Assembly: GCA_934130355.1 (NCBI GenBank)
Contig: CAKOXV010000006.1
Span: 8,541-72,540 of the forward strand
DNA from: an uncultured Clostridia bacterium
GTDB lineage: Bacteria; Bacillota; Clostridia; TANB77; CAG-508
Reading direction: 5' to 3'
Length of the DNA stretch: 64,000 bases
Shown: positions 3,897-63,116 of the stretch, in pieces
How positions within the stretch are numbered: position 1 is the stretch's first letter
Layout: every line of letters starts with the position of its first letter
The notes under the pieces: model-generated
Seen by the model: only the letters and a program-made list of their open reading frames with translations
Databases searched by the model: none
Told to the model about the DNA's origin: nothing
Made by a program: the position numbers and the translations under genes

Positions 3897-3946
3897 CATA
3901 AAAAAATAATAGTAATGATACTTAATTAAATACCATTACTATTATT
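3897..3946 (-). terminator. rho-independent terminator downstream of prfB
   Basis: 13-bp perfect stem AATAATAGTAATG/CATTACTATTATT (3906-3918 and 3934-3946), followed on the minus strand by a T-run. Confidence 0.6.
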
Positions 3947-3961
3947 ATATTTTTTCAAAAG

Positions 3962-5079: not shown

Positions 5080-6195
5080 CTATCTTTTATAATCTTCAAT
5101 ACTTAATTCTGGATATTTGAATAGTTGACCATCTTGTGTGAATTTTCCGGATTCCACGTGATTTTTCTCCATTGTTTTTGAGCCTTTTAAAAAATATTCA
5201 TATCTTGATTTATTTGTTAATATTGCTCCTATTCCTAAAACTGGATCATCCCATGTTACATCTATAGCGTACCATGCTTCATTTAATTTCACATAGTTCC
5301 AAGCATGATTTTCTGTTTGATTTTTGTTGTTTGTCCCTGTCCCTATAACAATTACATTTTCAACACCAATTTCATTCATTAAATATTGAAAAGCTTTAGC
5401 ATATCCTTCACATACACATCTTTTGTTTACTAGCGCCCCATATATGTCATATATATTATCTTCTGTCAAAGAATCTTCATATTCTATTGTATCTATCAAA
5501 TAATTATGTATTGTTCTGATTTTTTGATAATCTGTTTGTCCTTTTACTTTTTCCAATATTTCTTCTTTTGCTGATTGTATTTGTTTTTCATATTCTTCTA
5601 TGTCTTCTTTAGAACGAAAAAGATTTAATAAATATGAATCTTCTGACCCATTATTTATATATACATTATATTTTGTTCCTGTAATTTTCGTTATTTTTTC
5701 TATATTTATATACATTTTTGTAACATCTAAATAAAATACATCTGGATTTTCATATATAAATGCTTCTATTGCTGATTGATATTGCTTTTTTAATTCAACA
5801 TCTCCATTTTCTTGTGATAGCAATGACTGAAAAGCATCTGAAAATTCAATTCTATATGTTCCTGTTTTCAAGTTTTCTTTGTTTTTTTCTAATTTGTTAT
5901 ATATTGTTTTTGCAGTATTTGTTAGTTGATCATAAAAATATTTATTTCTTACAGTATTTGTTGTCTCTTGTGTTTTACCATTTACTCCATCAAACATTGA
6001 ATCATCAAAGTCAACATGCTCAGAATTCAAAGTTTCATATTTTATTATTGGAAAAATACTCTCACTTTCAAAACTAATTTCTATTCTACCATTTTGTGTA
6101 ATTTCTTTATATGTAAAATATCCTAAAACAGCAAGTACAGCTATAATTCCAATAATAAATACTGTTAATATAAATGTTATTATTTTATCTTTCAT
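5080..6195 (-). CDS. membrane-anchored transglutaminase-like domain protein
   Basis: 371 aa with an N-terminal TM helix. Cys-His-Asp core context: CVCEGYAKAFQYLMNEIG ... NHAWNYV ... IDVTWDD. Confidence 0.7.
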   Translation of the reverse strand: MKDKIITFILTVFIIGIIAVLAVLGYFTYKEITQNGRIEISFESESIFPIIKYETLNSEHVDFDDSMFDGVNGKTQETTNTVRNKYFYDQLTNTAKTIYNKLEKNKENLKTGTYRIEFSDAFQSLLSQENGDVELKKQYQSAIEAFIYENPDVFYLDVTKMYINIEKITKITGTKYNVYINNGSEDSYLLNLFRSKEDIEEYEKQIQSAKEEILEKVKGQTDYQKIRTIHNYLIDTIEYEDSLTEDNIYDIYGALVNKRCVCEGYAKAFQYLMNEIGVENVIVIGTGTNNKNQTENHAWNYVKLNEAWYAIDVTWDDPVLGIGAILTNKSRYEYFLKGSKTMEKNHVESGKFTQDGQLFKYPELSIEDYKR

Positions 6196-6311
6196 CTAAT
6201 CTCATCCCTTCTTCAAGGCACAAATGTATCACTTATTTATATTTTACTTTATATGGCAAAAAATATCAATACTTCATGAATAAGTTTTATTTTTTTGCAA
6301 ATATTACTAAT

Positions 6312-7922
6312 ATGAATTTTAAAGATTTTTTTAAGTGTTTAATTGAATATAAAAAGCCTTATAATTTTTCAATTATGAATAGCAAATTTAACAGTACTCC
6401 AGAGCCTTGTCAACAAATTCCTAATGTTTATCCTAATGTTAGTGAGAACCTGGAATTTCTTAAAAACAAATATAATGTGTTATTAAATAATGATATTATA
6501 ATACGTGAATTTAGTATGTTTGCATGTGACAAAGAATATCGTTCTTTTATTATTTGTATAGATGGGTTAGTTGATGCTATTTCTATTAATAATTTCATTT
6601 TAGAGCCTTTAATGTTAAAAAAACATAAAAACAGCAATAAATGTTCTCAAGAAAACTTATTAGAATATGTAGATTCTTGTTTGATACCTCAAAACAGTGT
6701 TAAAAAAATTACTGATTTCAAAGATGTTTTTGATGGAATTAATATGGGAGATTGTCTACTTTTCATTGATACTATAAATGTTGCGTTTGATATTGATGTA
6801 AAAAAATTCCCACAACGTGGAATTAGTAATCCTGAAAATGAAGCTGTTGTAAAAGGTCCTCAAGAAGGGTATGTAGAAAATTTAAGAACAAATACATCTC
6901 TTTTAAGACGTAAAATAAATAGTGAAAATCTTGTTATGGAAACTATTTCTGTTGGAAAAGTAAGTCAAACAAAATGTGGAGTATGTTATTTGCAAAACCT
7001 TGCAAATGGCGATTTAGTTGCAGAAGTAAAGTACAGACTCAGTAATTTAGATATAGATTCAATTATATCTACAGGTCAATTAGAACAGCTTATTGAAGAT
7101 GAAGAAGGATTTGGTGTTCCTCAAATGCTTGCAACCGAGAGACCTGACAAATGTGCTAAATATATGCTTCAGGGACGAGTTGTGGTTCTTGTTGATGGTA
7201 ATCCTTATGCATTGATTATGCCTGCAGTGATTGAAGATTTTCTTTTTTCACCAGAAGATACAAACTTAAGACCATTATTTGCTAATTTTTTACGTGGTAT
7301 ACGTCTTCTTGCATCTGTTATAACACTACTTCTCCCTGGCGTTTACATGGCAATTACAAGTTTTCATCAAGAATTATTACCTACAGAATTGTTATTTTCT
7401 ATTCTATCTGCAAGAGAAAACGTTCCTTTTCCAATTATTTTAGAGTTATTGTTGATGGAAATTTCATTTGAACTTATACGTGAGGCTAGTCTTAGAGTTC
7501 CATCTGTTATTGGAGATTCAATTGGAATCGTAGGTGCATTAATTTTAGGTGATGCTGCTGTAAATGCAGGAATTGTTAGTCCTACTCTTATAATTATTGT
7601 TGCTATTACTGGTATTGCATCATTTGCTATTCCTGACTTTTCATTTGTCTTCCACATTCGTATTTTTAGATTTTGGTTTATAGCTCTTGGCTTTACAGCT
7701 GGCTTTTTAGGAATAGGTATTGGACTTTTCATTTATCTTTCTATGTTATGTAGTGTTAAGTCTTTCGGAGTTCCTTATACTACTCCTATTACTCCTTCTC
7801 ATAATACTAGAGGAAATGGATTTTTTATTCCTCCTATTTGGAAACAAGAATATCGTGCTAGTTTTGTTTCTCCAAAGAAGGCTAAATCACAAGCAGATAT
7901 AAGTATGAAATGGAAAAATTAA
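6312..7922 (+). CDS. spore germination protein, GerA family A subunit (start uncertain; track ORF begins at 6174)
   Basis: Typical GerAA/GerKA core: SLLRRKI, ERPDK, GRVVVLVDGNPYALIMPA, and a C-terminal multi-TM region. The 6174 start would overlap the divergent upstream gene, so an internal ATG (6312) is preferred. Confidence 0.8.
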   Translation: MNFKDFFKCLIEYKKPYNFSIMNSKFNSTPEPCQQIPNVYPNVSENLEFLKNKYNVLLNNDIIIREFSMFACDKEYRSFIICIDGLVDAISINNFILEPLMLKKHKNSNKCSQENLLEYVDSCLIPQNSVKKITDFKDVFDGINMGDCLLFIDTINVAFDIDVKKFPQRGISNPENEAVVKGPQEGYVENLRTNTSLLRRKINSENLVMETISVGKVSQTKCGVCYLQNLANGDLVAEVKYRLSNLDIDSIISTGQLEQLIEDEEGFGVPQMLATERPDKCAKYMLQGRVVVLVDGNPYALIMPAVIEDFLFSPEDTNLRPLFANFLRGIRLLASVITLLLPGVYMAITSFHQELLPTELLFSILSARENVPFPIILELLLMEISFELIREASLRVPSVIGDSIGIVGALILGDAAVNAGIVSPTLIIIVAITGIASFAIPDFSFVFHIRIFRFWFIALGFTAGFLGIGIGLFIYLSMLCSVKSFGVPYTTPITPSHNTRGNGFFIPPIWKQEYRASFVSPKKAKSQADISMKWKN

Positions 7923-7946
7923 AAAGGGCTAACAGCCCTTTTTTTA
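7921..7946. terminator. bidirectional terminator between gerA-like gene and rubrerythrin
   Basis: AAAAAGGGCT-AAC-AGCCCTTTTTTT hairpin flanked by A- and T-runs. Confidence 0.65.
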
Positions 7947-8483
7947 ATAGTTTTCAGCTTTAATTTCAAAATATGCTTTTGGATGATTACATACTGGACA
8001 AATTTCTGGAGCTTTTGTTCCAACTACAATATGTCCACAATTTCTACATTTCCATATTTTAACTTCTCCTGCTTCGAAAACTTTTCCTTCTTTTACATTT
8101 TCTAATAATTTTAAATATCTTTGTTCATGTTCTTTTTCTATTTTTCCTACTTCTTCAAACAAATATGCTATTCTATCAAATCCTTCTTCTTTTGCTGTTT
8201 TAGCAAATTCTGCATACATATCCGTCCATTCATAATTTTCTCCATCTGCAGCAGCTTTTAAATTAGTTGCAGTATCTGATATTTCTCCACCATTTAATAA
8301 TTTGAACCACATTTTTGCATGTTCCTTTTCATTATCTGCCGTTTCTTGAAATATTGCAGCAATTTGCTCATACCCTTCTTTTTTTGCTTTACTTGCGAAA
8401 TATGTATATTTATTTCTTGCTTGTGATTCTCCTGCAAATGCAGTCATTAAATTTTGTTCTGTTTTTGTTCCTTTTAATTCCAT
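7944..8483 (-). CDS. rbr: rubrerythrin
   Basis: 179 aa. N-terminal ferritin-like diiron domain ([19 protein letters not shown] ... EKEH) and a C-terminal rubredoxin-like CRNCGH...CPVCNHPK. Confidence 0.9.
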
Positions 8484-8560
8484 AATTTTACCTCCTATTT
8501 TTTCAAAAGTAGAATATCACATTTATCTTAAAAATGCAATGCTATTTTTTCATTACTTGA

Positions 8561-8900
8561 TATTTTAGCCACTTATGGTTCAATACCACCATTACATTAT
8601 ATATATTAAAGTCATTCCAAATTTTGGACAAGCTAAACTTTCGTATAAAATCTAATAGTGCCAAAAGCGCCTCTTTCACTTAGTCCAAAAATTAATATAT
8701 TACTATGAAATAAGGCAAAGACCCCCGACGAAGACCCCAGCTATGTTTTTGCCATGGAATAGTAATATATTAATTTTTGACGTGAACATTCCTCTTTTGG
8801 CACTCTAAGATTTTCTATACTCAAGTTTAGATGCACAAAATTTTCCGTTTTTTAATATATATGATGTAATGGTGGTATTGAGCCATAAGTGGCTAAATTA
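8561..8900 (+). repeat. nested palindromic intergenic element, copy A (outer unique arms + L/R frame + inner hairpin module)
   Basis: Outer arms 8565-8597 and 8864-8896 (33 bp, 1 mismatch). L block 8617-8655, R block 8806-8846. Inner 20-bp perfect stem at 8687-8706 and 8759-8778. Homologous to the copies at 22468, 28547, 39695 and 62644. Confidence 0.9.
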
Positions 8901-8901
8901 T

Positions 8902-11900
8902 TTAGTAACAATTTTCTTTTCCAACGATATCTTCAAATACTTTTAAAATCTCATCAGTCAAATAAATTGCACCACAAGATTTTAATTCTTCATTGTTTTT
9001 TATTGCAACACTAATATTATTTTGTTCTCCATTAAAGAACTTGATTGCCCCTCTAAGTTTTGCTTTTTGTTCCTCTGTCAAATTTGTAATATTTAAAACT
9101 AGCATTTGAGGCTTTGTCTCACCAAAGTTCTTGATTTCTCTAGCAACAATTTTAGTTGCCTCATCTTCTTTAACACTAAGTCTTCCATCTATTAAAACAA
9201 TATTTTCTTCTACTAATATATCTTGTGCCTTCAAATAAGTTGGTTCAAACACTATAATTTCAATTGTTCCATATAAGTCTTCTATCGTTACAAAAGCCAT
9301 AATTTTATTATTTTTAGTATATTTCTTTTTTACTGATTGTATTATTCCAGCAATTCTTACTTCTTTACCATCAATTCCATTCTCTTTTTGTTCTTGCTCA
9401 TCAATTTCATGTATTTTAAGTGAAGACATATTTGTTGATGCAATTATTTGTTCTCTTATTTTTTCTAGCGGATGTCCTGAAATATAAATTCCGAGCATTT
9501 CTTTTTCTATAGAAAGTAGTTCTTTTTCATTCATTTCAGGCTTTTCATCAAAGTTATATTTTATATCATTTAAATTATCTTCTTCATTGTCTCCACCTAA
9601 ATCAAACATTGAAACTTGTCCATTCATTCCTTTTTTTGCATAAGATTGAATAGTGTCTATTATTGTTTCAAAAGATGCTAATAATGTTGCTCTAGTTTCT
9701 GGAAAATCAGAAAATGTTCCTGCTTTTATTAAACTTTCTACACATTTTTTATTTAATGCTTCTCCTGCCATTCTTTCACAAAAATCTGTAAAGCTTAAAA
9801 AATCTCCTGATTCTTCCCTATTTTTTATTATACTTTCAACTGGTTGCAAGCCTACATTTTTTATACTTCCAAGTCCAAAACGGATTTTTCCATCTTCTAC
9901 TGTAAATTTTGAATAACTTTTATTAATATCTGGTTTTAAAATTTCTATGCCAAGTCTTTTACATTCATCTATATATTCTGGAACCTTGTCCAAATTTCCT
10001 AAAAAGCTATTTAACATTGATGCCATGAATTCTGCTGGATAATATGCTTTTAAATACGCTGTTCTATATGCCACAACTGCATAACATGCAGCATGTGATT
10101 TATTAAAAGCATATTTAGCAAATTCGGACATTTCATCAAATATCTTATTTGCAGATTCTGCATCTATTCCATTTCTTACACATCCTGGAACAATTATGTT
10201 TCCGTTTTCATCAACTTGCCCATTTATAAATACTTCTCTTTCTTTTGCCATTACATCAAGTTTTTTCTTTCCCATTGCTCTACGAACTAAATCTGCACGT
10301 CCTAAAGAATAACCAGCCAAATCTCTTACTATTTGCATTACTTGTTCTTGATATACCATGCATCCATAAGTTACATTCAAAATTGGCTCTAGGCTTGGAT
10401 GTGTATATTCATTATGTCCTGGATTTTGTTTTCCTTTGATATATCTTGGTATTTGGTCCATTGGTCCTGGTCTATATAATGAAACACCAGCTATTAAATC
10501 TTCTAAACAGTCTGGCTTTAGTTCTTTCATGAAGTTTGTCATTCCTTGTGATTCAAATTGAAATATTCCAGATGTATTGCCTTCTTGCCATAGTTTATAG
10601 GCTTTAGGGTCTGACATATCTTCATCAAATTTTACATCTATTCCTTTATCTTTTTTGACTAGATTAATTGTATCTTTTATAACAGTTAAAGTTCTGAGTC
10701 CTAGAAAGTCCATCTTTAAAAGTCCAAGTTCTTCTAGTGTTGTCATTATGTATTGTGTTGAAATTTGACCATCTCTAACATATAATGGCACATAAGTATC
10801 AACAGGATCTTTTGTTATTACAACACCACAAGCATGTGTTGAAGCTTGTCTTGGCATTCCTTCTAATGCCATTGCTATATCTAATAACTTATGTACCTGT
10901 TCATCAGTTTCATATAAATCTTTTAGCTCTTTGTTTTGTTCTAATGCCTTTGGAATTGTTATATGTATTTCATTTGGAATCATTTTTGCAAGTCTATCTG
11001 CTTCTGAATATGGATAATCCAAAACTCTTGCAACATCTCTTATTACCATTTTTGCTGCCATAGTTCCAAATGTGATTATCTGTGAAACATGGTCATGCCC
11101 ATATTTTTCTGAAACATAATCTATTACTCTTTGTCTATCAACATCTGAAAAATCGACATCAAAGTCTGGCATGCTTATTCTTTCTGGATTTAAAAATCTT
11201 TCAAATAGTAATCCATATTTCATTGGGTCTATATCTGTTATTTCGATAGCATATGCTAAAATAGAACCTGCTCCTGACCCTCTTCCTGGTCCAACAGGAA
11301 TCCCATGACTTTTGGCATAATGTATAAAATCCCAAACAATTAAATAATAGTCAACATATCCCATCTTTTTAATAATGCCTATTTCATATTCTGCTCTTTT
11401 TAAAACTTCTTCTGATGGGTTTTCACCATATCTTTTCTTTATTCCATCATCACAAAGTTTTTTCAAAAAATCATAGTGTGTTGGATATTCTGGTGGTACA
11501 TCATAATTAGGTAATATTGTATGGCCAAATTCAAATTCCACATTACATTTATCTGCAATTTTAACCGTATTTTCTATTGCATCAGGAAATGCAGAAAAAT
11601 ACTCACTCATCTCTTCTGGTGACTTAACATATAATTCATCAGTATCAAATCTCATTCTGTCTTCATCACTCATACGTTTTCCTGTTTGAATACAAAGTAA
11701 TATTTCATGATTATAAGCATCTTCTCTTTTCAAATAATGTGCGTCATTTGTTGCAACTAGCGGAATATCTAATTTTCTTGCAAGTTGCACCAATTTCTGG
11801 TTTGCAAGTACTTGTTCTTTTATTCCATTGTTTTGAATTTCTATATAATAATCTTCTCCAAAAACCTTTTTATGCCATAATGCAATTTCTTCAGCTTTTT

Positions 11901-13435: not shown

Positions 13436-13635
13436 AAACAATCCCCGCCTTAGCCGTAAGTTGTCTGAATTTTTAAGGACCTGTCTTCGACAGGTGGGTG
13501 CCTACTCAGATACTCATGGGCTTCTTACTACTCGAGAGTGTAAGCTTGCACGCCATATCCAAAGATTTTGGCCCCTCTTTTAACTTGTAGGTTCTAAAAA
13601 TTCTATGCTACACGCACTATGCAGGGTATTGTTAT
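13436..13635 (-). ncRNA. ssrS: 6S RNA
   Basis: G+C-enriched non-coding island. The minus strand contains TTTTAGAACCTACAAGTTAAAAGAGG and GCACCCACCTGTCGAAGACAGG, which match my recollection of the B. subtilis 6S-1 segments UUUAGAACCUACUCAGUAAGAGG and ACACCCACCUGCACGGACGGCAGG. The terminal segments can pair (GAATTTTTA/TAAAAATTC, CCCTGC/GCGGGG). It ends in a T-run. Confidence 0.7.
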
Positions 13636-18883: not shown

Positions 18884-18967
18884 ATATTTTCTCTTTTCTT
18901 ACTTGTTCTCTTTTAATTAGAATTACTTTGTATATAAGAAATTAGATATTAACTATATAGCTAATAT

Positions 18968-19753
18968 CTAATTTTGTTCTTTTAATCTATACTCAATATA
19001 TTCAATATTACTATTTTTACTTCTTTCAACCATACAATTATAAACTCGATTTCTCAAATCTTGTTTTTGTTCTTGCATAGTCAACTCTTTATTAGCATAA
19101 AATGGTCCATCAATATAAGTAACTATTTTTATTTTATCATTATTTTTTCCATAACTTTGATATGTGTTTGTCATACAAAATGTTGGAACATTATATTGTA
19201 CTGGATATTTAAATGATACTGCTTTAAATGGTCTTATTTTAGTGTAATATGGCCATATATGGGCTTCTGGATATATTGTAATTGAATGTTTTTTATTTAT
19301 ATGTGTTTCTATTGCATTTACAAAGTTTTTCATTCCATTTTTATTGTTTGGAATTGGTATAGCACCAAGTAATTGAATACTGTTTCCTAAAAATTTCATA
19401 GACACATTTTCTGGGTTTACTATAAAATGGTTCCTTTTAGGGTATATTGGAAGGCTTGGTATAAATACATCAGCAAAAACTTGTGTATGATTTGCATATA
19501 CAAAATATCCATTATTTTTAAATGGTTTTAATTTTTCTTTTCCTATATATTTTATTCTGAATTTAATTTTTCCATATAAAATTTTTATAGGCATACTTAA
19601 AACATTCTGTAGTAAAAATGAAGCGAAATTCCAAAAAGGGTTTTTATGTATATATTTGTAATTTTCATCAATAGCTCTTGCTTGAATTTTCGCTCCTGAA
19701 AATTCATCATTTAATTCATCTTGATAGTAATAGCATTTTTTAGATTTCATCAT
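18968..19753 (-). CDS. lysophospholipid (PlsC-family) acyltransferase
   Basis: 261 aa. NHTQVFAD (HX4D) and YPEAHIW blocks. Confidence 0.65.
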   Translation of the reverse strand: MMKSKKCYYYQDELNDEFSGAKIQARAIDENYKYIHKNPFWNFASFLLQNVLSMPIKILYGKIKFRIKYIGKEKLKPFKNNGYFVYANHTQVFADVFIPSLPIYPKRNHFIVNPENVSMKFLGNSIQLLGAIPIPNNKNGMKNFVNAIETHINKKHSITIYPEAHIWPYYTKIRPFKAVSFKYPVQYNVPTFCMTNTYQSYGKNNDKIKIVTYIDGPFYANKELTMQEQKQDLRNRVYNCMVERSKNSNIEYIEYRLKEQN

Positions 19754-21542
19754 TTATTTCCTTTTTTATTGTAGTATATTCAAGTGGAATACCATAAAAA
19801 TCTTCATATATATTTTTCCAAACTTCAAAGTTTTGTTCTTTCATAAGTTCTACATTTTCTCTTTCTGCTATTTCTTCATCTGGGTAAATTGGTTTTGCTA
19901 TATGAACATAATATTCTTTTCTTGGAAATCCGTCTTCACCAATTATTTCGCTGTCTTCCATTGTAATGAATATAGGTACAACTGGTACATTATTTTTTGT
20001 TGCAAATTTGAAGGCTCCATTTTTTAGTGGCTTTGGTTTCTCATAATTCCACCACATACTTTGTTCTGGATATATTAATACAAAATCTCCTCTTTTTAGT
20101 ACTGTATCAACTGCTTTCATAAAATTTGCCATTGTTTTCCTATTTGAACTTAATGGTAATGTATCTGCATTTCTAAATAAAAATCCATAAAATCCTGGGA
20201 AATTTGTATAGTTTCCTTCTCTTATTACTTTATATAGTTTTTTATTTTTTCTTTGTCCTGACAATGAGAATATTTCTTCTATTGTAAAAGCATCAAATGG
20301 ATTAAAGTGATTACATGTTATTACTGCACCACTTGTAATTCCACTTAAATTTTCAAGTCCTTGAACATCTTTTATTATTAATTTGTTGCTTTTTATTATA
20401 CCATCTAAAAATAAAGCTCCTACTTTATTTGCAAATTTGTTTTTTATCTTATTTTTTCTTTTTGTTTTTAAATAATCTACATCTTCTGGCATTAGTTCTA
20501 TTGTTGGTGGATCATTTTCTGCATCAACATCAAATTTCCCTTCTTTTTCTAATTGTTCTATTCTATCTAAAATTTCTAATCTCTCTTTTGCTTTTTCTGA
20601 ATATTCAATGTTTCTTATTTTCCTGTCATCTCCAACACAGTCTGATTCCTTTTTTGCCATTGCTCTTAAATTCTTATCTGCTTCTATATCTTGAAATTTC
20701 ATTTCTTCTGTAAAATTATTTTTTATACTTAAAATATAATCATAAAATTCTGTTTTCTTTGCATTTTCCCAAAAATATTCTCCATATAATGTGTCATCAT
20801 AGTGCCATGGTTTATATTGATAATTATAGTGGATTAATTTTATGTCTTCTTCTTTTATTTCATTTGTTGCTGTAGGCATAACATTCCAGCCTAAATCTAA
20901 TAATTTTACTCTACCTTTACATATTCTATTTAGGTAATCTTGATCTTGAACTACAGAATATTTTACATTTGCTAATAAATATAAAAATTTATCTTGAAAT
21001 TTAAATTTTCTTAACTCATCTAAGTTCATTACTAACATCCCTGCATTAAAATATGTTTTGTAACTTGCCATTCCTACTACTTTTTCTACATACTCTTGGA
21101 ATACCTCATTCTTTTGGATTATATCATCTGGAACAGCTCCTACTAAACTTGTTCCTATATCAATATTGTATAATTCTGCAATATCTGTTAAAAGCACTAT
21201 ATCACAATCTAAATATATTGCTTTATTATATTGTGGATATAAGTTTGATATAAATAATCTAAAATATGTCGTCATTGAAAAATAGTCTCTTGTATATAAT
21301 TTATCTTTTATTTCTTCTATATAATAATTTAAATCCACAAATTCTATATTTATATTTTCTCTTGTATATTTATTGATTTGTTCTTTGCTTTCTTCACTTA
21401 TATTTGTACATAGTATTTTTATTACATAATAATAATCTTCTGTAGAATGATCCACTAAAGATTGTAATGTTACTGCTAAAAATGGTATATACTTATCATC
21501 AACAGCAAAAAATATTGGTATTATTTCTTTATACTTCTCCAT
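19740..21542 (-). CDS. bifunctional glycosyltransferase family 8 / PlsC-like acyltransferase fusion protein
   Basis: 600 aa. N-terminal GT8 signature (IPIFFAVDDKY..., YLDCDIVLL, NAGMLVMNL) and C-terminal acyltransferase blocks (CNHFNPFDAF, IYPEQSMW). Confidence 0.7.
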   Translation of the reverse strand: MEKYKEIIPIFFAVDDKYIPFLAVTLQSLVDHSTEDYYYVIKILCTNISEESKEQINKYTRENINIEFVDLNYYIEEIKDKLYTRDYFSMTTYFRLFISNLYPQYNKAIYLDCDIVLLTDIAELYNIDIGTSLVGAVPDDIIQKNEVFQEYVEKVVGMASYKTYFNAGMLVMNLDELRKFKFQDKFLYLLANVKYSVVQDQDYLNRICKGRVKLLDLGWNVMPTATNEIKEEDIKLIHYNYQYKPWHYDDTLYGEYFWENAKKTEFYDYILSIKNNFTEEMKFQDIEADKNLRAMAKKESDCVGDDRKIRNIEYSEKAKERLEILDRIEQLEKEGKFDVDAENDPPTIELMPEDVDYLKTKRKNKIKNKFANKVGALFLDGIIKSNKLIIKDVQGLENLSGITSGAVITCNHFNPFDAFTIEEIFSLSGQRKNKKLYKVIREGNYTNFPGFYGFLFRNADTLPLSSNRKTMANFMKAVDTVLKRGDFVLIYPEQSMWWNYEKPKPLKNGAFKFATKNNVPVVPIFITMEDSEIIGEDGFPRKEYYVHIAKPIYPDEEIAERENVELMKEQNFEVWKNIYEDFYGIPLEYTTIKKEINDEI

Positions 21543-22467: not shown

Positions 22468-22900
22468 CAAGTTCAAAAAACATGATTTAACAGTTGGAAC
22501 TACACATATATATTGAAAACATTTCAAATTTTGGACAAGCTAAACTTTCGTATAAAATCTAAAAATACAACCCGAGCCTCTCTCACTCAGGCTCAACTTT
22601 ATCAATATGTATAATTTGAATAAATTACGAATGTGACTGGAATAGTGTTATAAATTCTTAAACAAAAGTCATAAAGGGTCCTGTCTTCGGGTATAGTTGT
22701 GACTTTTGTTTTAGAATTTGTTAACGTTATGCAAGGTAGCCGAGTAATTTATGAAAAGTATACATATTGATAAAGTTGCCCGTGAGCATTCCTCGGATAT
22801 GTACTTTAAGATTTTCTATACTCAAGTTTAGATGCACAAAATTTTCCATTATTCAATATATATGTGTAGTCTCAACTGTTAAGTTGTATCTTTTGAACCA
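22468..22900 (+). repeat. nested palindromic intergenic element, copy B (same L/R frame, different inner cargo)
   Basis: L block 22524-22562 and R block 22807-22847 are nearly identical to copy A. The inner 185-bp palindromic module 22594-22778 is unrelated to the A/D/E/F inner module. Outer arms (AACAGTTGGAACTACAC / GTGTAGTCTCAACTGTT) are unique to this locus. Confidence 0.9.
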
Positions 22901-25687: not shown

Positions 25688-25792
25688 CAAAAAAATTAAT
25701 ATATTACTATGAAATACAGCAAAGCCCCCAGCAAAGACCTTAGCTATGTTTTTGCTATTGAATAATAATATATTAATTTTTTGTAAAGTTTA
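25688..25792 (+). repeat. solo copy of the inner hairpin module (copy C)
   Basis: AAAAAATTAATATATTACTAT...ATAATAATATATTAATTTTTT stem enclosing AGCAAAGCCCCCAGCAAAGACCTTAGCTATGTTTTTGCT. Homologous to the innermost layer of copies A, D, E and F, but without the L/R frame. Confidence 0.85.
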
Positions 25793-28507: not shown

Positions 28508-28546
28508 AATTTTAAAATTTTATTATTTATTTTTCTCATAAAAGCT

Positions 28547-28848
28547 ATAACACTTACGCAGATGCATATATATTAAAGACATTCCAAATTTTGGACAAGC
28601 TAAACTTTCGTATAAAATCTAAAAGTACAACCTGAGCCTCTCTCACTTAGTCCAAAAATTAATATATTACTATGAAATAAAGCAAAGACCCCCGACGAAT
28701 ACCCCAGCTATGTTTTTGCTATGGAATAGTAATATATTAATTTTTGACGTGAGCATTCCTCAGTTTGCACTTTAAGATTTTCTATACTCAAGTTTAGATG
28801 CACAAAATTTTCCATTATTTAATATATATGCATCTGCTCAAGTGTTAT
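28547..28848 (+). repeat. nested palindromic intergenic element, copy D
   Basis: L block 28584-28622 and R block 28773-28813. The inner module is nearly identical to copy A. Outer arms (ATAACACTTACGCAGATGC / GCATCTGCTCAAGTGTTAT) are unique to this locus. Confidence 0.9.
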
Positions 28849-28894
28849 ATTTTTTGTGTCAAGCAAACTACTAATTAATATAATAAAATTTTTC

Positions 28895-32436: not shown

Positions 32437-33111
32437 TTAATCATTTACTATATATCCAATTCCTCTAACAGTTTGAATTATTTTTCCATCTTTATCATCT
32501 ATTTTTTCTCTTATTCTTTTTATATACACTGTTAGAGTATTGTCATTGACAAAATTACCTGCCACATCCCAAATTTTGTCTAATATCTGTTCTCTAGTTA
32601 CTAAAATATTTTTATTATTAAATAATAGTAATAATATTTTATACTCTAGACTTGTGAGAATCACTTCTTCATCATTTTTATATACTTTAGCTGTATTATT
32701 ATCTATCATTATATCTTTGCATTTAATTTGATTCTCGCTGTTTGTATTTTTTCCATACCTACGTAATACACTATTTATTCTTGAGATTAGTTCTCTAGTT
32801 CTAAATGGTTTTACAACATAATCATCTGCTCCCATATCCAGTCCTTGTACAATATCTTTTTCTTCATCTTTTGCTGTTAAAAATATCACTGGTTGTGATT
32901 CATTTTCTTTTATTATTTTACAAATCTCACTCCCTTCTCCATCAGGAAGAGTTATATCTAATAAATATAAATTATATTTTTCTTTTTTGATTTTTGTTTT
33001 AGCAGTTACTATATTTTTTGCTGTATCTACTTCAAATCCCTCTTGTTCTAAAGAATATTTTAATCCCATTATTATTGTGTCATTATCTTCTACTAATAAT
33101 ATTTTTTGCAT
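32437..33111 (-). CDS. OmpR-family response regulator
   Basis: 224 aa. Receiver domain (LLVEDND...LLDITLPDG) plus a winged-helix C-terminus (LTSLEYKILLLL...VRGIGY). Confidence 0.9.
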   Translation of the reverse strand: MQKILLVEDNDTIIMGLKYSLEQEGFEVDTAKNIVTAKTKIKKEKYNLYLLDITLPDGEGSEICKIIKENESQPVIFLTAKDEEKDIVQGLDMGADDYVVKPFRTRELISRINSVLRRYGKNTNSENQIKCKDIMIDNNTAKVYKNDEEVILTSLEYKILLLLFNNKNILVTREQILDKIWDVAGNFVNDNTLTVYIKRIREKIDDKDGKIIQTVRGIGYIVND

Positions 33112-36138: not shown

Positions 36139-37326
36139 CTAGATTAATCTTGCTGTTTCTCTTGCAATCATAAGTTCCTCATTTGTTGGTATTACATAAG
36201 CTTTAATTTTAGAATCTGGTGTTGTAATTTCTTTTTCTTCTCCTCTTATATTGTTTGCTTCTACATCTATTTTAACTCCCATAAATTCAAGCTTTTCACA
36301 AATTCCTTTTCTAATATTTATTTGATTTTCTCCAACTCCTCCTGTAAATACAATGTAGTCAATTCCATTCATTGCAACAGCATATTTAGCTATAAATCCA
36401 GCTATTTCATATTTAAATTTTTCAATTGCAATTGCTGCATCTTCATTATCACCATAAGATGCTGCTTCTATCTCTCTAAAATCTGGAGCCATTCCAGATA
36501 TTGCTTGAAGTCCTGACTTTTTATTTAATATATTTTCAACTTGGTCTGCTGTTAAGTTTTCTTTTTTCATTATATATGTAACTACAGAAGGGTCTAAATC
36601 TCCTGAACGTGTAACCATTGGAATTCCTCCAAGTGGTGTTAATCCCATACTTGTATCAATTGATCTTCCACCTTCAACAGCAGTTATACTAGATCCTTGT
36701 CCTAAGTGGCATGTAACTATTTTTAGATTTTTTATATCTTTTCCAACAATTTCTGCTAATCTTCTAGATACATATAAATGTGATGTACCATGTGCTCCAT
36801 ATTTTCTTATTCCATATTTTTTATAATATTCATAAGGAATTGGATATATAAATTTTTCTTTTGGCATTGTTTGGTGGAATGTTGTATCAAATACTCCTAC
36901 CATTGGTTTCCCTGGCATAACTTTTTTACAAGCTTCTATTCCTATTATTCCAGCAGGATTATGTAATGGTGCTAAATCTATACACTCTCTTAAAACATCT
37001 ACCACATGTTCATCAATTAATGTAGATTCTTTTATTTTTTCTCCACCATTTAATAATCTATGTCCTATTGCAGAAATTTCGTCTAAGCTATCAATTACCT
37101 TATATTCTGGATTTATTAATTGTTTTAATGTAAAATCTACTGCTTCTTCATGTGTTTTTGCAGGATGTTTTATTTCTATTTTTCTTCCATTAACTTTATG
37201 TGTTATAAAAGCTTCAGCTTCTCCTATTCTTTCATATTTTCCAGAAGCTAATACTTCTTCATTCTCCATATTTATTAATTGATATTTTAGTGATGAACTA
37301 CCACAATTTAGTACTAATATTTTCAT
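36139..37326 (-). CDS. ackA: acetate kinase (paralog 2, distal)
   Basis: 395 aa with MKILVLNCGSSSLKYQ, HRLLNGG, FDTTFHQT and YGAHGTSH. Confidence 0.9.
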   Translation of the reverse strand: MKILVLNCGSSSLKYQLINMENEEVLASGKYERIGEAEAFITHKVNGRKIEIKHPAKTHEEAVDFTLKQLINPEYKVIDSLDEISAIGHRLLNGGEKIKESTLIDEHVVDVLRECIDLAPLHNPAGIIGIEACKKVMPGKPMVGVFDTTFHQTMPKEKFIYPIPYEYYKKYGIRKYGAHGTSHLYVSRRLAEIVGKDIKNLKIVTCHLGQGSSITAVEGGRSIDTSMGLTPLGGIPMVTRSGDLDPSVVTYIMKKENLTADQVENILNKKSGLQAISGMAPDFREIEAASYGDNEDAAIAIEKFKYEIAGFIAKYAVAMNGIDYIVFTGGVGENQINIRKGICEKLEFMGVKIDVEANNIRGEEKEITTPDSKIKAYVIPTNEELMIARETARLI

Positions 37327-37347: not shown

Positions 37348-38541
37348 TTATTTATTTACAATTTTCTCTGTTTCTTTCGCAATCATAAGTTCTTCATTTG
37401 TTGGTATTACATATACTTTTACTTTTGAATCTGGTGTAGAAATTTCTGTTTCTTCTCCTTTTACAAGATTTAGCTTACCTGAAATTTCAACTCCAAATAC
37501 TTCTAGTAGATTACAAATTTCTCCTCTTGAATATGGTGATTTTTCTCCTACTCCAGCAGTAAAAGTAAGTACATCTAATCCACCCATTGCAACAGCATAT
37601 TTAGCAATAAATCCTGCAATTGCATAATGGTATGCATCTAATGCTGTATTTGCTCTTTTTCCGCCTGCTAAAGCTTCTGCTTCAATATCTCTAAAATCTA
37701 TTGATACTGTTGACATTCCATAAGCACCAGATTCTTTATTTAAAATTCTTTCTATTTCATCTGCACTTAATCCTTCTTTTTTCATTATATATGTAACTAC
37801 TGATGGATCTAAGTCTCCTGAACGTGTTCCCATTGGTATTCCTCCAAGTGGTGTTAGCCCCATACTTGTTTCTACTGATTCACCATTTTTTATAGCACAT
37901 AAACTTGCCCCTTGGCCAAGATGACAGTTTACTATTTTTAAGTCTTTCACATCTTTTCCCATAATTTCTGCAACTCTATTTGCAACATATTGATGTGATG
38001 TACCATGAAATCCATATTTTCTTATTCCATATTTTTCGTAATATTCTTTTGGAATTGCATATAAATATTTATCTGCTGATATAGTTTGATGAAAAGCTGT
38101 ATCAAATACTGCTACCATTGGCTTATCTGGCACTACTTTTCGGCATGCCTCAATTCCTAATACTGCTGCCGGATTATGTAAAGGAGCTAATTCTGCTGTA
38201 TCTTTTATTCCTTGCACAACTTCATCTGTTATTAATACCGCATCTTTAAATTTTTCTCCACCATGTACTACTCTATGTCCAATAGCATCTAGTTCATCTA
38301 ATGATTTGAATATTCCATAACTATCGCTTACTAATCTTCCCATCACAAATTCAATTGCTTTTTCATGATTTACAGCTGGATGCTCAAATTTGTGTTTTTC
38401 TCCATGTACTTTGTGTGTTAGAAAAGCTTGCTCTTGTCCTATTCTTTCATAATTTCCTTTTACTAACATTTCTCCTGTTTCTGTATCTATTACTTGATAT
38501 TTAAGTGATGAACTACCTGAATTTAATACTAAAATTTTCAT
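37348..38541 (-). CDS. ackA: acetate kinase (paralog 1, adjacent to pta)
   Basis: 397 aa with MKILVLNSGSSSLKYQ, HRVVHGG, FDTAFHQT and YGFHGTSH. Confidence 0.9.
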   Translation of the reverse strand: MKILVLNSGSSSLKYQVIDTETGEMLVKGNYERIGQEQAFLTHKVHGEKHKFEHPAVNHEKAIEFVMGRLVSDSYGIFKSLDELDAIGHRVVHGGEKFKDAVLITDEVVQGIKDTAELAPLHNPAAVLGIEACRKVVPDKPMVAVFDTAFHQTISADKYLYAIPKEYYEKYGIRKYGFHGTSHQYVANRVAEIMGKDVKDLKIVNCHLGQGASLCAIKNGESVETSMGLTPLGGIPMGTRSGDLDPSVVTYIMKKEGLSADEIERILNKESGAYGMSTVSIDFRDIEAEALAGGKRANTALDAYHYAIAGFIAKYAVAMGGLDVLTFTAGVGEKSPYSRGEICNLLEVFGVEISGKLNLVKGEETEISTPDSKVKVYVIPTNEELMIAKETEKIVNK

Positions 38542-39558: not shown

Positions 39559-39694
39559 TTTTCCCTCCTTAATATATTATAAGTTCTTAATTTATTTAAT
39601 GTTCGAGTTTAATATATCATATCAATTCAAAAAACACAATACAAAACAAGAAAAAACCCTATACTATGGTTACAGTATAATGGTTCTGAGGAAC

Positions 39695-40043
39695 AAGAGG
39701 GCAAGAGTAGTTGGCAGATAACATCACACAGCTTATCTAATAAAATGAATGAAAGATTTTGTGTATCTAAACTTAACATTAGAAAATCTTATATAATAAT
39801 ATGAGGGATGTTCACGGGGGAAAAGTTAATATATAACTATTCCATAGCAAAAACATAGCTGGGGTCTTCGTCGGGGGTCTTTGCTTTATTTCATAGTTAT
39901 ATATTAACTTTTTCAGCCTGAGTGAAAGAGGCTCATATTATTAAATTAGATTTTCTTTGGGAAGTTTAGCTTATTCAAAATCTGTAATGACATTTTATTA
40001 GATAAGCTGTGTGATGTTATCTGCCAACCACTGTTGCCCTCTT
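39695..40043 (-). repeat. nested palindromic intergenic element, copy E (inverted orientation, diverged frame, ~52-bp unique outer arms)
   Basis: Outer arms AAGAGGGCAAGAGTAGTTGGCAGATAACATCACACAGCTTATCTAATAAAATG and its near-perfect inverse. The inner module 39828-39915 is the reverse complement of the copy A module (GGGGTCTTCGTCGGGGGTC loop). Confidence 0.85.
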
Positions 40044-40057
40044 TTTGCACTCACTAT

Positions 40058-45848: not shown

Positions 45849-45852
45849 GTTT

Positions 45853-46201
45853 TATAAGTGAACCTGTAAGCCGGGTTCTGTCATCAAAAATAGTCATTTA
45901 TCTAGGACATATATCACTATATGTCTCAAGCCACGCAATTCAGAAGCGCCGAGCAGACGTTATCCTTCTACTTAGGTGTTGCTCCAGATGGGGTTTACAC
46001 TGACCCAGTATGTCACCATACCAGCGGTGAGCTCTTACCTCGCCTTTTCATCCTTACCTCCATAAGAGGCGGTTATTTTCTGTTGCACTTTCCTTAAGGT
46101 TTCCCTCACTAGACGTTATCTAGCATCTTTGCTCTATGGAGCCCGGACTTTCCTCTCGTAATTCCTTTCGAAATTTACCAGCGACTATTTAATTCACTTG
46201 G
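45853..46201 (-). ncRNA. rnpB: RNase P RNA
   Basis: Minus strand contains GAGGAAAGTCCGGGCTCCATAGAGCA, GGAAAGTGCAACAGAAAA and ACAGAACCCGGCTTACAGG. 5' AAGTGAA pairs with 3' TTCACTT (P1). Confidence 0.9.
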
Positions 46202-55683: not shown

Positions 55684-55737
55684 AAAATGTATTTTAGTCT
55701 CTTTTTCAAATTTTTACAAGTATAATATTATAAAAAG

Positions 55738-55753
55738 TGTCTAAATTTAGACA
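55738..55753. promoter_or_regulatory. perfect 16-bp palindrome, candidate TetR operator in the divergent tetR/MMPL promoter region
   Basis: TGTCTAAATTTAGACA lies between the divergently transcribed transporter (start 55683) and the TetR gene (start 55823). Confidence 0.5.
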
Positions 55754-55822
55754 TTTTTTATAATATTGTCTTTTTTAAGATTTTATGATATAATATTCAA
55801 AAATATTAAAAGGAGATTAATT

Positions 55823-59649: not shown

Positions 59650-59669
59650 AATATCACCTAACTATTGCA

Positions 59670-59698
59670 ATAGTATCAAACAATTGTTCTTTTGTCAA
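59670..59698 (-). promoter_or_regulatory. SOS-type promoter of dinB with a LexA (Cheo) box in the spacer
   Basis: Minus strand: TTGACA (59698-59693), spacer AAAGAACAATTGTTTGA, then TACTAT (59675-59670). The spacer contains GAAC-AATT-GTTT, one mismatch from GAAC-N4-GTTC. Confidence 0.55.
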
Positions 59699-59705
59699 GC
59701 AAAAA

Positions 59706-59734
59706 TTGCATTTTTTGTAAATTTGTGTTATAAT
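59706..59734 (+). promoter_or_regulatory. sigmaA-type promoter (extended -10) of the Hfq-like gene
   Basis: TTGCAT (59706-59711), 17 nt spacer, TATAAT (59729-59734). The -10 is preceded by TGT. Confidence 0.45.
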
Positions 59735-59792
59735 ATATTTATGTTAAGCTTATATGGCTTACAAATTTATTAATAGAGAGGAAAATATCATC

Positions 59793-60014
59793 ATGTTGAA
59801 TCACAACTCTAACAGCATTTTACAGGATCTTCTACAAGGATCATTGGAGCGGAAAGTGAGAGTCATTTTCACAAATGGATTCCAGTTACGTGGGATCCTG
59901 AAGAAGTTTGACAGTACCCACCTGATGTTGGATTGCAGCAGGTATGCTGAATACAACACCGCTGTAATCGCTATTAACGCGATTGCAACTTTCGTCCCCG
60001 AAGAAACCAAATAA
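59793..60014 (+). CDS. divergent Hfq-like (Sm fold) protein, compositionally foreign
   Basis: MLNHNSNSILQDLLQGSLERKVRVIFTNGFQLRGILKKFDSTHLMLDC...AINAIATFVP aligns by eye with the Hfq Sm1 (LQD.FLN..R.E...V.I.L.NG.QL.G.I..FD) and Sm2 (..HAIST..P) regions. The ATG at 59793 has an upstream GAGAGG. The track ORF starts at 59754. Confidence 0.6.
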   Translation: MLNHNSNSILQDLLQGSLERKVRVIFTNGFQLRGILKKFDSTHLMLDCSRYAEYNTAVIAINAIATFVPEETK

Positions 60015-60023
60015 TCTCTATGT

Positions 60024-60058
60024 CCCCCCTCAGAAAATTCTGAGGGGGATTTCTTTTT
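60024..60058 (+). terminator. rho-independent terminator of the Hfq-like gene
   Basis: CCCCCTCAG-AAAATT-CTGAGGGGG followed by ATTTCTTTTT. Confidence 0.7.
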
Positions 60059-60225
60059 AGCAAGAAGAACAAAGCGACGTAGTCGCCCTTTGTTCTTGCC
60101 CGATTTGAGTTTTCGACTATAAGGAGAAAATCTCAAAGGGCTAGCGATTGTAGCTTTTATATACTAGGAAGTCCAGAGGACTTTCCTAGTATATAAAAAG
60201 AGACAAGCAAATGCTTGTCTCTTTA

Positions 60226-62551: not shown

Positions 62552-62643
62552 ATCAAATTTCCTTTCTATTTTTTCTTCATTTTATATATACTTTGTTACC
62601 AAAATATTCTTTTTTTATGTTTTTTGTGTGAACATTACCAATT

Positions 62644-63017
62644 AATCCTGTAAATACAACACCGCACAAATGCTATGATAGACTCCTTGGGTCTGCATAT
62701 ATATATTAAAATAATGAAAAATTTTGTGCATCTAAACTTGAGTATAGAAAATCTTAAGTACCAAAAGAGGGATGTTCACGTCAAAAATGAATATATTACT
62801 ATTCCATGGCAAAAACATAGCTAGGGTCTTCGTCGGGGGTCTTTGCCTTATTCCATAGTAATATATTCATTTTGGGACTAAGTGAAAGAGGCTCGGGTTG
62901 TACTTTTAGATTTTATGCGAAAGTTTAGCTTGTCCAAAATTTGAAATGTTTTTAATATATATGTGCAGACCCAAGGAGGCTATTATAGCGTTTGTGCAGT
63001 GTTGTATTCACAGGATT
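62644..63017 (-). repeat. nested palindromic intergenic element, copy F (inverted orientation, ~54-bp unique outer arms)
   Basis: The reverse complements of the L and R blocks are present at 62909-62947 and 62718-62758. The inner module is rc-homologous to copy A. The outer arms AATCCTGTAAATACAACACCGCACAAATGCTATGATAGACTCCTTGGGTCTGCA and their inverse show 5 mismatches. Confidence 0.9.
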
Positions 63018-63116
63018 ATTAACAAGTAATAAATAAAGAAAATAAGTATAAAATAAATTGAATTTTGAATATTAATTTGATATAATCAAATTATATTTTA
63101 TTAAGGAGGTATTTTT

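Follow-up and report, generated by a model that had tools for sequence, protein, structure and literature searches.

The definition of MITEs (short for miniature inverted-repeat transposable elements) rests on terminal repeats that are conserved, duplications of the target and a related transposase, and REPINs consist of two conserved terminal repetitive extragenic palindromic (REP) sequences that enclose a variable middle and are mobilised by RAYT transposases. The enterobacterial repetitive intergenic consensus (ERIC) sequences, also known as intergenic repeat units (IRUs), are enterobacterial elements of about 127 bp. REP sequences themselves are the targets of two insertion sequences (ISs), IS621 and ISPpu10, and the latter depends on a hairpin located 5' of the target (PMC11208160; 10.64898/2026.03.19.712850). 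Here we describe a family of interspersed repeats in a 64-kb stretch (hereafter, the window) of contig CAKOXV010000006.1 from an uncultured Clostridia bacterium (positions 8,541 to 72,540; assembly GCA_934130355.1). We consider it probable that these repeats are a family of long imperfect palindromes (~230-430 bp) from uncultured, spore-forming gut Clostridia that resemble in kind REP sequences, bacterial interspersed mosaic elements (BIMEs) and ERIC sequences, serve as a landing pad for an IS of the IS110 family, and are reshaped by recombination between their own arms.

The closest documented parallel is the targeting of REP sequences by IS621 in Escherichia coli and by ISPpu10 in Pseudomonas putida. 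In these systems, as in the repeats described here, a multicopy intergenic palindrome is the site- and orientation-specific landing pad of a bridge-RNA IS, with a CT core at both junctions and a promoter across the circle junction; furthermore, the hairpin required by ISPpu10 is located directly 5' of the left target half, and here the apical stem-loop is directly followed on its 3' side by the left half. The copies in the window are imperfect palindromes that are strictly intergenic, except that dnaE ends, with its last codon and its stop codon, inside one arm of copy A, and at least eight further right-hand flanks were found in other contigs. The REP unit, however, is only about 20-40 bp long, whereas the units described here reach 230-430 bp, with an apex that accepts insertions and with a number of asymmetric loops that are conserved. 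The host, a low-GC Gram-positive anaerobe, is different as well, and similarity to REP in sequence is not expected.

All six sequence-sharing loci that had been recognised in an earlier, sequence-only reading of the window were recovered in our whole-window repeat search, five as full copies and one as a remnant, each of them intergenic. We refer to these loci as A to F: in the L-to-R polarity of the unit (see below), copies A (8553-8908), B (22471-22898), C (25688-25792) and D (28537-28858) are on the plus strand, and copies E (39692-40046) and F (62643-63018) are on the minus strand. Identity between copies A and D amounts to 93% over 265 nt, and copy F is 91% identical to each of these two over ~206 nt; E belongs to a divergent subfamily. 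The patterns of the L block, the R block and the C-rich loop matched at five, five and four places, respectively, compared to an expectation of 0.00-0.01 in shuffled sequences, in which the L and R patterns were absent. Copy C, which retains the apical module and decayed traces of the central motifs, is a decaying remnant, given that these motifs are faint and that it carries a 12-nt deletion in another strain. No further copies were detected in the next 10 kb of the same contig past the window. The concern that such long palindromes could be assembly artefacts was addressed with copy A, which fills the same 418-nt spacer between dnaE and the rubrerythrin gene in five assemblies that derive from different samples; recovery at one site in five independent metagenome assemblies shows that it is not an artefact. 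Several shorter strain contigs (L035-L037; here and below, L followed by three digits denotes a contig from another assembly) terminate within copy A, as expected of a repeat.

An IS110-family element at the centre of the repeat

The centre of the repeat has the form 5'-GAG CCTCT TTCAC (apical stem-loop) GTGAA CATYC CTC-3' and, in copy A, includes the central-left motif GCGCCTCTTTCAC (8667-8679, plus strand) and the central-right motif GTGAACATTCCTC (8782-8794, plus strand). Look-up of neighbouring genes showed that, in another strain (L059), copy F encodes within it a 392-aa protein with the DEDD_Tnp_IS110 and Transposase_20 domains, and look-ups of homologues and contigs added ten more contigs in which the same 1.54-kb element resides in repeats of this family. 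In all 11 contigs, the junctions are the same, and so is the orientation of the element relative to the L-to-R polarity. Insertion is always beside the apex, after ...GTGAACATTC-CT, a position that corresponds to the CT at 8792-8793 in copy A. The left junction (the slash marks the boundary) reads ...GACGTGAACATTC-CT-C/GTATAATGG... (also read as ...GAACATTC-CT-C/GTATAATGG...), and the right junction reads ...TTGACAACATATAGTTAGT-CT-C/(variable helix)TTTAAGATTTTCTA.. (also read as ...TAGTTAGT-CT-C/...), followed by the R block and the outer arm, with at least eight different right-hand arms found beside the element. With insertion point, orientation and core dinucleotide thus constant at both junctions, the conserved centre is a specific attachment site of an IS110-family insertion sequence. 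The polarity that the sequence-only reading had attributed to the unit, from the differences between the L and R blocks, was correctly perceived, and it is exactly this asymmetry that the IS110 element reads.

When the ends of the IS are joined, a spacing of 17 nt separates the TTGACA of the right end from the TATAAT of the left end across the circle junction, and a promoter in this position is typical of the IS110 family (PMC11208160). Within the left non-coding end (245 nt), CUGUGG/CCACAG close a loop in which AAACAUUCCU is found. This stretch has the same sequence as the left target half (top strand) followed by the CT core and matches the target AACATTCCT, so that, by the rule described for bridge RNAs (PMC11208160), it looks like the left target guide; in addition, UAGUUAG in the same non-coding end matches the right end of the IS. 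We therefore regard AAACAUUCCU as a candidate bridge-RNA guide. An 80%-identical relative of the element (P0179; L072-L079, eight contigs from other samples) has the same RNA scaffold with a different guide, UUUUCUCCU, and inserts at ...TTTCTC-CT (target TTTCTCCT), which corresponds in reverse complement to Shine-Dalgarno sites located immediately upstream of genes. Thus, guide and target differ together between the two elements, which supports the guide assignment. The genes downstream of the targets of this relative include those for a major facilitator superfamily (MFS) protein, rbfA and others, and the pair of elements is a natural example of guide reprogramming.

The ends of the IS110 element showed no homology to the L and R blocks, to the apical module or to the module found at the apex of copy B. 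Given that the ends of the IS share nothing with the repeat, this element is a visitor rather than the parent of the family.

Anatomy of the hairpin and origin of its arms

The common plan of the unit was derived by stacking left halves on reverse-complemented right halves for eight to nine members of the family. From the outside inwards, it comprises an outer stem, an AT-rich junction, the helix AATTTTG, an asymmetric loop (GAYAAG on the L side and ATRCAC on the R side), the helix CTAAACTT, another asymmetric loop, bulged on its R side, the helix AAAATCT, a hypervariable self-complementary helix of 10-14 bp and, finally, the centre. In copy A, all on the plus strand, the left outer arm, including the TATATATA junction, spans 8553-8610 and bears most of the between-strain substitutions; the L block, with asymmetric loops that are conserved across genera, spans 8613-8655; the left strand of the variable helix, AGTGCCAAAAG (8657-8667), pairs with 8794-8804; the apical module (8687-8778) consists of perfect 20-bp arms (8687-8706 / 8759-8778) and an invertible 52-nt C-rich loop; and these are followed by the R block (8806-8846) and the right outer arm (8851-8908). 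An additional imperfect inverted pair connects 8644-8667 with 8794-8817. The inner hairpin described in the sequence-only reading is real and represents the elongated apical stem of the centre, although its perfect stem measures 21 bp (8686-8706 / 8759-8779) rather than 20 bp. The sequence of the variable helix differs from copy to copy, with self-complementarity retained in all copies except F, where the left strand is B/D-like and the right strand is A-like, pointing to exchange between copies of different subfamilies.

The apex tolerates the insertion of modules. In minimal copies from other genomes (L006, L017, L053 and L042), it is a short hairpin, and in copy B and in two copies from the metagenome-assembled genome (MAG) ERS329791__bin65 (hereafter, bin65), a different module of ~175-200 nt (in copy B, ~196 nt, 22587-22782) occupies the same apex. 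Among bin65 copies with identical outer arms, the ~175-nt module is either present or absent, precisely at the hairpin apex. In these respects, the family resembles ERIC sequences, which are also imperfect palindromes with a conserved central inverted repeat and size variants that result from insertions at fixed internal sites, and which are likewise intergenic, occur in either orientation and are better conserved than the surrounding spacer. ERIC sequences differ in that they belong to another phylum and are unrelated in sequence and, to our knowledge, neither in-situ flips nor IS110 targeting have been described for them. REPINs are similar to these repeats in being hairpin-forming units that encode no protein, are inherited vertically, need both arms and lack target-site duplications, but it is the terminal REP sequences that are conserved in REPINs, whereas here the centre is conserved and the periphery varies.

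The 33-bp outer arms of copy A had been thought to occur at this locus only. In fact, the arms of copy A are 58 nt long with 91% complementarity, and long arms are present as well in copies B (47 nt, 85%), D (41 nt, 88%), E (56 nt, 95%) and F (84 nt, 87%). A degenerate consensus beside the junction (..CTTGGGTCYRYACATATATATT) is common to about 20 arms taken from different loci, and many of these also contain a GCTATAAT-like motif farther out; the junction itself consists of (TA)n at four loci (A, B, D and F) and is of another form in E and in L053. Within a copy, arm complementarity is maximal beside the core and falls outward. Comparison of six sequences of the 418-nt copy A spacer (the window and five strain contigs) revealed 16 variable columns, of which 13 map to the outer arms (~84 columns), 3 to the core (~245 columns) and none to the 80-nt promoter-proximal flank. 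Genome-wide, the same strains diverge by 0.8-2.3%; hence the periphery evolves at about the neutral rate or faster, and the core is strongly conserved. At mismatched arm positions, variants swap arms between strains, as observed for a T/C pair at copy A and for a whole arm variant at copy F. Taken together, these comparisons indicate that each copy is one long hairpin with a conserved centre and a fast-evolving yet self-complementary periphery, and that the arms are evidently not older, independent palindromes.

This pattern bears directly on the possibility, listed in the sequence-only reading, that the palindromes grow by template switching, that is, that outward growth through template switching or fold-back synthesis copied unique flanking sequence from one side to the other and thereby made the arms specific to each locus. 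At first sight, the arms do look locus-specific, and the last dnaE codon and the stop codon are inside an arm of copy A. However, complementarity that is highest by the core and decays outward is the opposite of what recent outward growth would leave behind, the arms of different loci share a consensus, and the complete arms in bin65 belong to the copied unit. Growth of this kind thus found no support and appears extremely unlikely.

The right arm of copy A overlaps the stop codon of dnaE at 8902-8904, rather than starting 5 nt from it, as previously noted. In all relatives, DnaE (1147-1190 aa in total) has a C-terminus of the form ...GKENC plus one or two variable residues, with the ends located at 8902-8910 in the window, 13360-13368 in L053, 13460-13474 in L054 and 13505-13516 in L055. 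Two of the strain contigs contain an extra gene for an ORF6N-domain protein between the rsm22-like and yqeY genes (L031, 2665-3600; L033, 2615-3550), and in L033 dnaE is called as two open reading frames (ORFs; 6077-9582), which suggests a frameshift or an assembly error.

Similarly to Correia elements and other bacterial MITEs, the repeats are short, non-coding and hairpin-forming, with TA-rich junctions and locations beside gene ends. Serial insertion of MITE-like elements into hairpin loops, as suggested in the sequence-only reading, does describe the apical module of bin65 and the IS110 element beside the apex, but does not extend to the arms, which are the periphery of the same unit, and neither conserved termini nor target-site duplications were identified. 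In a more specific form of this explanation, a TA-targeting DDE transposase (IS630/Tc1-like) would repeatedly have dropped short, non-autonomous elements into palindromes that already existed between genes, at their AT-rich centres, and subsequently into the apical loops of one another. Nested insertions of this kind would fit the (TA)n junctions that flank the L/R core in copies A, B, D and F, the presence or absence of the apical module in otherwise identical bin65 copies, where the junction allows a duplication of at most 3 bp (ATA), and the existence of unoccupied AT-rich intergenic palindromes with 18-38-nt arms in the window. Yet, the termini of the palindrome differ between copies, and conservation peaks in the centre and is lowest at the ends, the reverse of the arrangement in elements with terminal inverted repeats; the outer arms are homologous between copies instead of being unrelated host palindromes; and copy E and L053 lack the (TA)n junction. 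No consistent direct repeat was found outside the arms of A, B, D, E, F and L053, and the (TA)n junction is uninformative on target-site duplication because it is palindromic. Neither a partner transposase nor a related autonomous element with the same ends was detected in the window, in plasmids and phages, or in the scanned genomes and the genome and metagenome pattern matches; for the window, the earlier statement that it encodes no transposase agrees with the Pfam lists for ~50 genes. Insertion polymorphism was not observed among conspecific strains either: A, B, D and E were each found in all strains compared (5, 2, 3 and 4, respectively), and gene order differs in the relatives. Nested classical MITEs are, in our assessment, an unlikely origin of the family.

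A structured non-coding RNA, whether a gene or a cis-element, would retain its function in conserved internal loops, with the long closing stem free to vary. Compatible with this explanation, two helices beside conserved loops changed in a compensatory manner across genera (CTAAACTT/AAGTTTAG to CCAATCTT/AAGATTAG, and AAAATCT/AGATTTT to AGAAGTT/AACTTCT), with the asymmetric loops unchanged; predicted folds of both strands are very stable (z-scores of -16 to -18); one strand carries the pyrimidine-rich, anti-Shine-Dalgarno-like loops CCUCU / CAUYC; and the core is far better conserved than neutral sites. However, gene conversion that keeps the arms complementary mimics covariation, and the variable helix of copy F is unpaired, with strands from different subfamilies. 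Copies are found in either orientation to neighbouring genes, the core flips at a fixed locus, and folding energy gave no consistent strand preference (the energies favoured the minus strand for six copies out of eight and the plus strand for the other two). In Rfam searches of the window, copies A, B and D and the IS locus at gathering and E-value thresholds, none of the copies nor the IS locus reached the threshold, and only RNase P RNA and 6S RNA passed in the window. The best sub-threshold match was that of the apical module to RF01742 (the lactis-plasmid RNA motif), which aligned end to end (8685-8786 and 28652-28764) with 31-32 bits, compared to a gathering score of 70, and E = 0.001 on a short region. 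The two have the stretches CCAAAAAU, UGAAA and UUUGC in common, but with a score below gathering the apical module is not a member of RF01742, and the similarity might reflect distant kinship or just two AT-rich hairpins. The structured RNA family that the sequence-only reading had listed thus gained no positive support, and we consider it improbable.

Searches for promoters and terminators in the core yielded nothing above shuffle expectation and nothing conserved, except for one strand-specific, G-U-only terminator-like hairpin followed by a U-rich tail within the invertible loop. Promoters, where identifiable, are outside the element (that of rubrerythrin by eye and that of clpB, TTGACA-17-TATAAT at 28493-28465, by scan). 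Contrary to the earlier statement that there is no ORF inside the repeat, a hydrophobic ORF of 28 aa (MFTSKINILLFHGKNIAGVFVGGLCLIS) on the minus strand of the element extends across both the central motif and the apical loop in copies A (8706-8789, minus), D (28673-28756, minus) and F (62772-62855, plus), but is not conserved. As a type I toxin it was rejected, being frameshifted in copy E and destroyed by flips of the loop; its changes are mostly non-synonymous, the Shine-Dalgarno sequence is ~1 nt from the ATG, and it is probably not a gene.

Inversions in place and exchange between arms

Two copies were found inverted in place, at different layers, in a single contig from another sample (L044). 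At copy D, the flanks and arms are collinear with the window, and the entire ~260-nt core from L to R is reversed (97.8% identity over 313 nt in reverse orientation). At copy E, the L and R blocks are unchanged, and only the 52-nt loop that the 20-bp inner arms enclose is reversed; this inner loop was seen in both orientations among copies. We regard these orientation calls as reliable given that the perfect repeats bounding the flipped segments are 20-21 bp long and can be spanned by reads and k-mers. The simplest cause of the flips and of the swapped arm variants would be that the two arms of a copy recombine or undergo gene conversion with each other, a process that would also let the arms stay complementary while drifting. 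The flips could have come about through RecA-dependent exchange, template switching or an enzyme.

In gut bacteria, invertons are invertible promoters, in which inverted repeats bound a segment that occurs either way round (PMC5903667, PMC11892184). The repeats share with invertons the occurrence of an inverted-repeat-bounded segment both ways at one locus, but differ in that no invertase is encoded nearby, no internal promoter is apparent, and the segment that inverts is a dispersed repeat in its own right, with layers of inversion nested within it. A programmed switch of this type, in which a site-specific recombinase acting on TTAATATAT-containing repeats in each layer would use nested inversions to switch a signal in the asymmetric core, is in line with the in-situ inversion at two different layers, with the presence of TTAATATAT within both sets of crossover arms, and with the strand-specific G-U-only hairpin and U-rich tail in the invertible loop. 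But no recombinase gene was identified in the window and no promoter in the core, the neighbours are housekeeping genes, such as clpB, whose own promoters lie beyond the element, most copies are in one orientation across the strains examined, and arms of 20-84 bp are long enough for homology-driven events. We consider a dedicated switch very unlikely.

Flip and flop isomers of parvoviruses and poxviruses arise by hairpin transfer at the ends of linear genomes. The resemblance is by analogy only: in both cases, the interior of an asymmetric palindrome exists in two inverted forms relative to an outer stem, but the viral hairpins are located at genome ends, whereas the palindromes described here are inside the chromosome.

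Four contigs (L064, L067, L068 and L069) contain, upstream of the IS, a distinct subfamily of the repeat, with the inner loop flipped, a different middle, GGGGTCATCCCCATAGTGGG, and 39 additional nucleotides, GCGGATTGAGATTGTCCAGACGTCTAGATAATTTAAATA, that separate the apical stem from the central-right motif.

Distribution and mode of propagation

In an exact-pattern scan over one genome per GTDB species, genuine copies were found in two uncultured Clostridia MAGs only, bin65 (four contigs) and BRZ_EF__bin101; the remaining 24 stretches do not contain the R block and have the appearance of chance matches. A divergent copy was detected on one JGI metagenome contig. The copies in other uncultured Clostridia (L006, L053 and L042) each have their own outer arms; the copy in L053, a relative with 90% identical DnaE, has 79-nt arms. 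The four bin65 copies have the entire 85-nt outer arm in common, starting at GTTACTATATAATGG, which implies that the whole hairpin is the unit that was multiplied in that genome. A BLAST search with copy A against plasmids and phages gave no match, and the R-pattern scan of viral contigs produced two chance matches only, both within coding sequence. The family is so far uncatalogued in Rfam, PLSDB, INPHARED and IMG/VR. Integron attC sites, which are 57-141-bp hairpins with R''/R' core sites that occur in cassette arrays beside intI, differ from these repeats in size, and the repeats are dispersed among housekeeping genes without an integrase, although the R-box consensus was not searched for. 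Comparison with dnaE relatives of 88-90% identity did not reveal an empty site, as the downstream gene order differs and nothing is alignable; a candidate empty site upstream of the GT8 gene of L053 was also discarded, the promoter alone being shared.

Proteins encoded in the window were found to be identical on human-gut metagenome contigs in exact-protein look-ups (e.g., Hadza NODE_462, 97,974 bp). The window has a G+C content of 25-32%, with the majority of genes on the minus strand, and includes the spoIIIA operon, the class A RNase P RNA (45851-46200, minus, 283 bits) and 6S RNA (13438-13630, minus, 83 bits). The neighbour of copy E that had been called gerQ-like has no Pfam hit, leaving that label unverified. 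Two tandem acetate kinase paralogues (36139-37326 and 37348-38541, minus; ~75% DNA identity) are located downstream of pta. The 576-nt spacer at 59650-60225 was considered as another element and rejected, as it contains an Hfq-like gene (59754-60014, plus; 86 aa; Pfam Hfq, 30.5 bits) on the strand opposite to its neighbours, along with GC-rich terminator-like hairpins. Several other palindromes were noted as well. Unoccupied AT-rich palindromes map to 3900-3951, 18939-18974 and 32593-32650, and a 76-bp uninterrupted palindrome (55708-55783; 38-nt arms, 82%) between divergent genes for an MMPL transporter and a TetR-family protein is probably an operator. In L053, a GC-richer palindrome with perfect 63-nt arms of GGACATTTGGnGTCnGTTCC units (9700-9894) is located upstream of dnaE, and a 279-bp imperfect palindrome (19644-19922) lies between response-regulator and histidine-kinase genes.

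In the reading that we favour, namely, an interspersed palindrome family that offers IS110 a specific landing pad sparing genes and is reshaped by arm recombination, the unit would be a hairpin-capable element with four parts: an asymmetric conserved centre, the L and R blocks, an insertion-tolerant apex and a near-neutral, self-complementary peripheral stem. The combination of fixed bulges and loops, paired helix changes and the lack of conserved termini or target duplications suggests that the unit is recognised in folded form, through its centre; it might thus be recognised and copied as a folded single-stranded hairpin in which the periphery need only pair. Crossover or conversion between the arms would flip whatever is inside, be it the whole core, as in copy D, or the inner loop only, as in copy E, would swap arm variants, and would maintain arm complementarity. 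The family would be largely selfish or neutral DNA that resides in gene-free spacers, from the stop codon of one gene to the promoter of the next.

Several observations weigh against this interpretation. The unit is 5-10 times the length of a REP sequence. Specific internal-loop sequences are conserved across genera, which hints at a function involving a protein or RNA partner and is not explained by a selfish repeat. Neither a mobilising enzyme nor an empty site was found, and the conspecific assemblies examined showed no presence/absence polymorphism, so that spread, by any mechanism, is an inference only. Each flip was observed in one assembled strain only, and the variation is between strains. 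With regard to the IS110 element, the right-hand target guide was identified only as GAGG pairing with CCTC; furthermore, the contigs that span the IS are short and of low coverage, some are chimeric-looking, and the arms of L063 and L065 are unmatched, which makes the number of occupied loci soft. In a more far-reaching alternative, the family would not be inert, and its conserved, asymmetric centre would be a functional single-stranded hairpin signal, either the site recognised by an undescribed hairpin-specific replicative enzyme or a structure kept by the host; the family would also have been co-opted as a genomic safe harbour in co-evolution with bridge-RNA IS110 elements, and its nested layers would flip and flop independently of a recombinase. 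We regard this alternative as possible, though with a rather low probability.

Should the centre be such a functional hairpin, the repeats would represent a class of palindromic replicators of Gram-positive gut bacteria that are defined by their centre and not by their ends. In size, in the centre-out gradient of conservation, in the nested flips and in the apical insertions, the family differs from REP sequences, REPINs and MITEs, and the combination of a conserved centre with a periphery that is free to vary as long as it self-pairs asks for a different copying mechanism. In practical terms, pipelines for inverton detection would call these repeats invertons even though no switch function is evident, and the repeats break metagenome contigs and can yield chimeric joins. 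The probable interspersed family of IS110 landing pads places a multicopy target of a bridge-RNA recombinase in a new setting, a Gram-positive gut anaerobe, and the two 80%-identical recombinases, in which guides and targets change together, are of direct use for understanding how programmable recombinases choose and change their sites.

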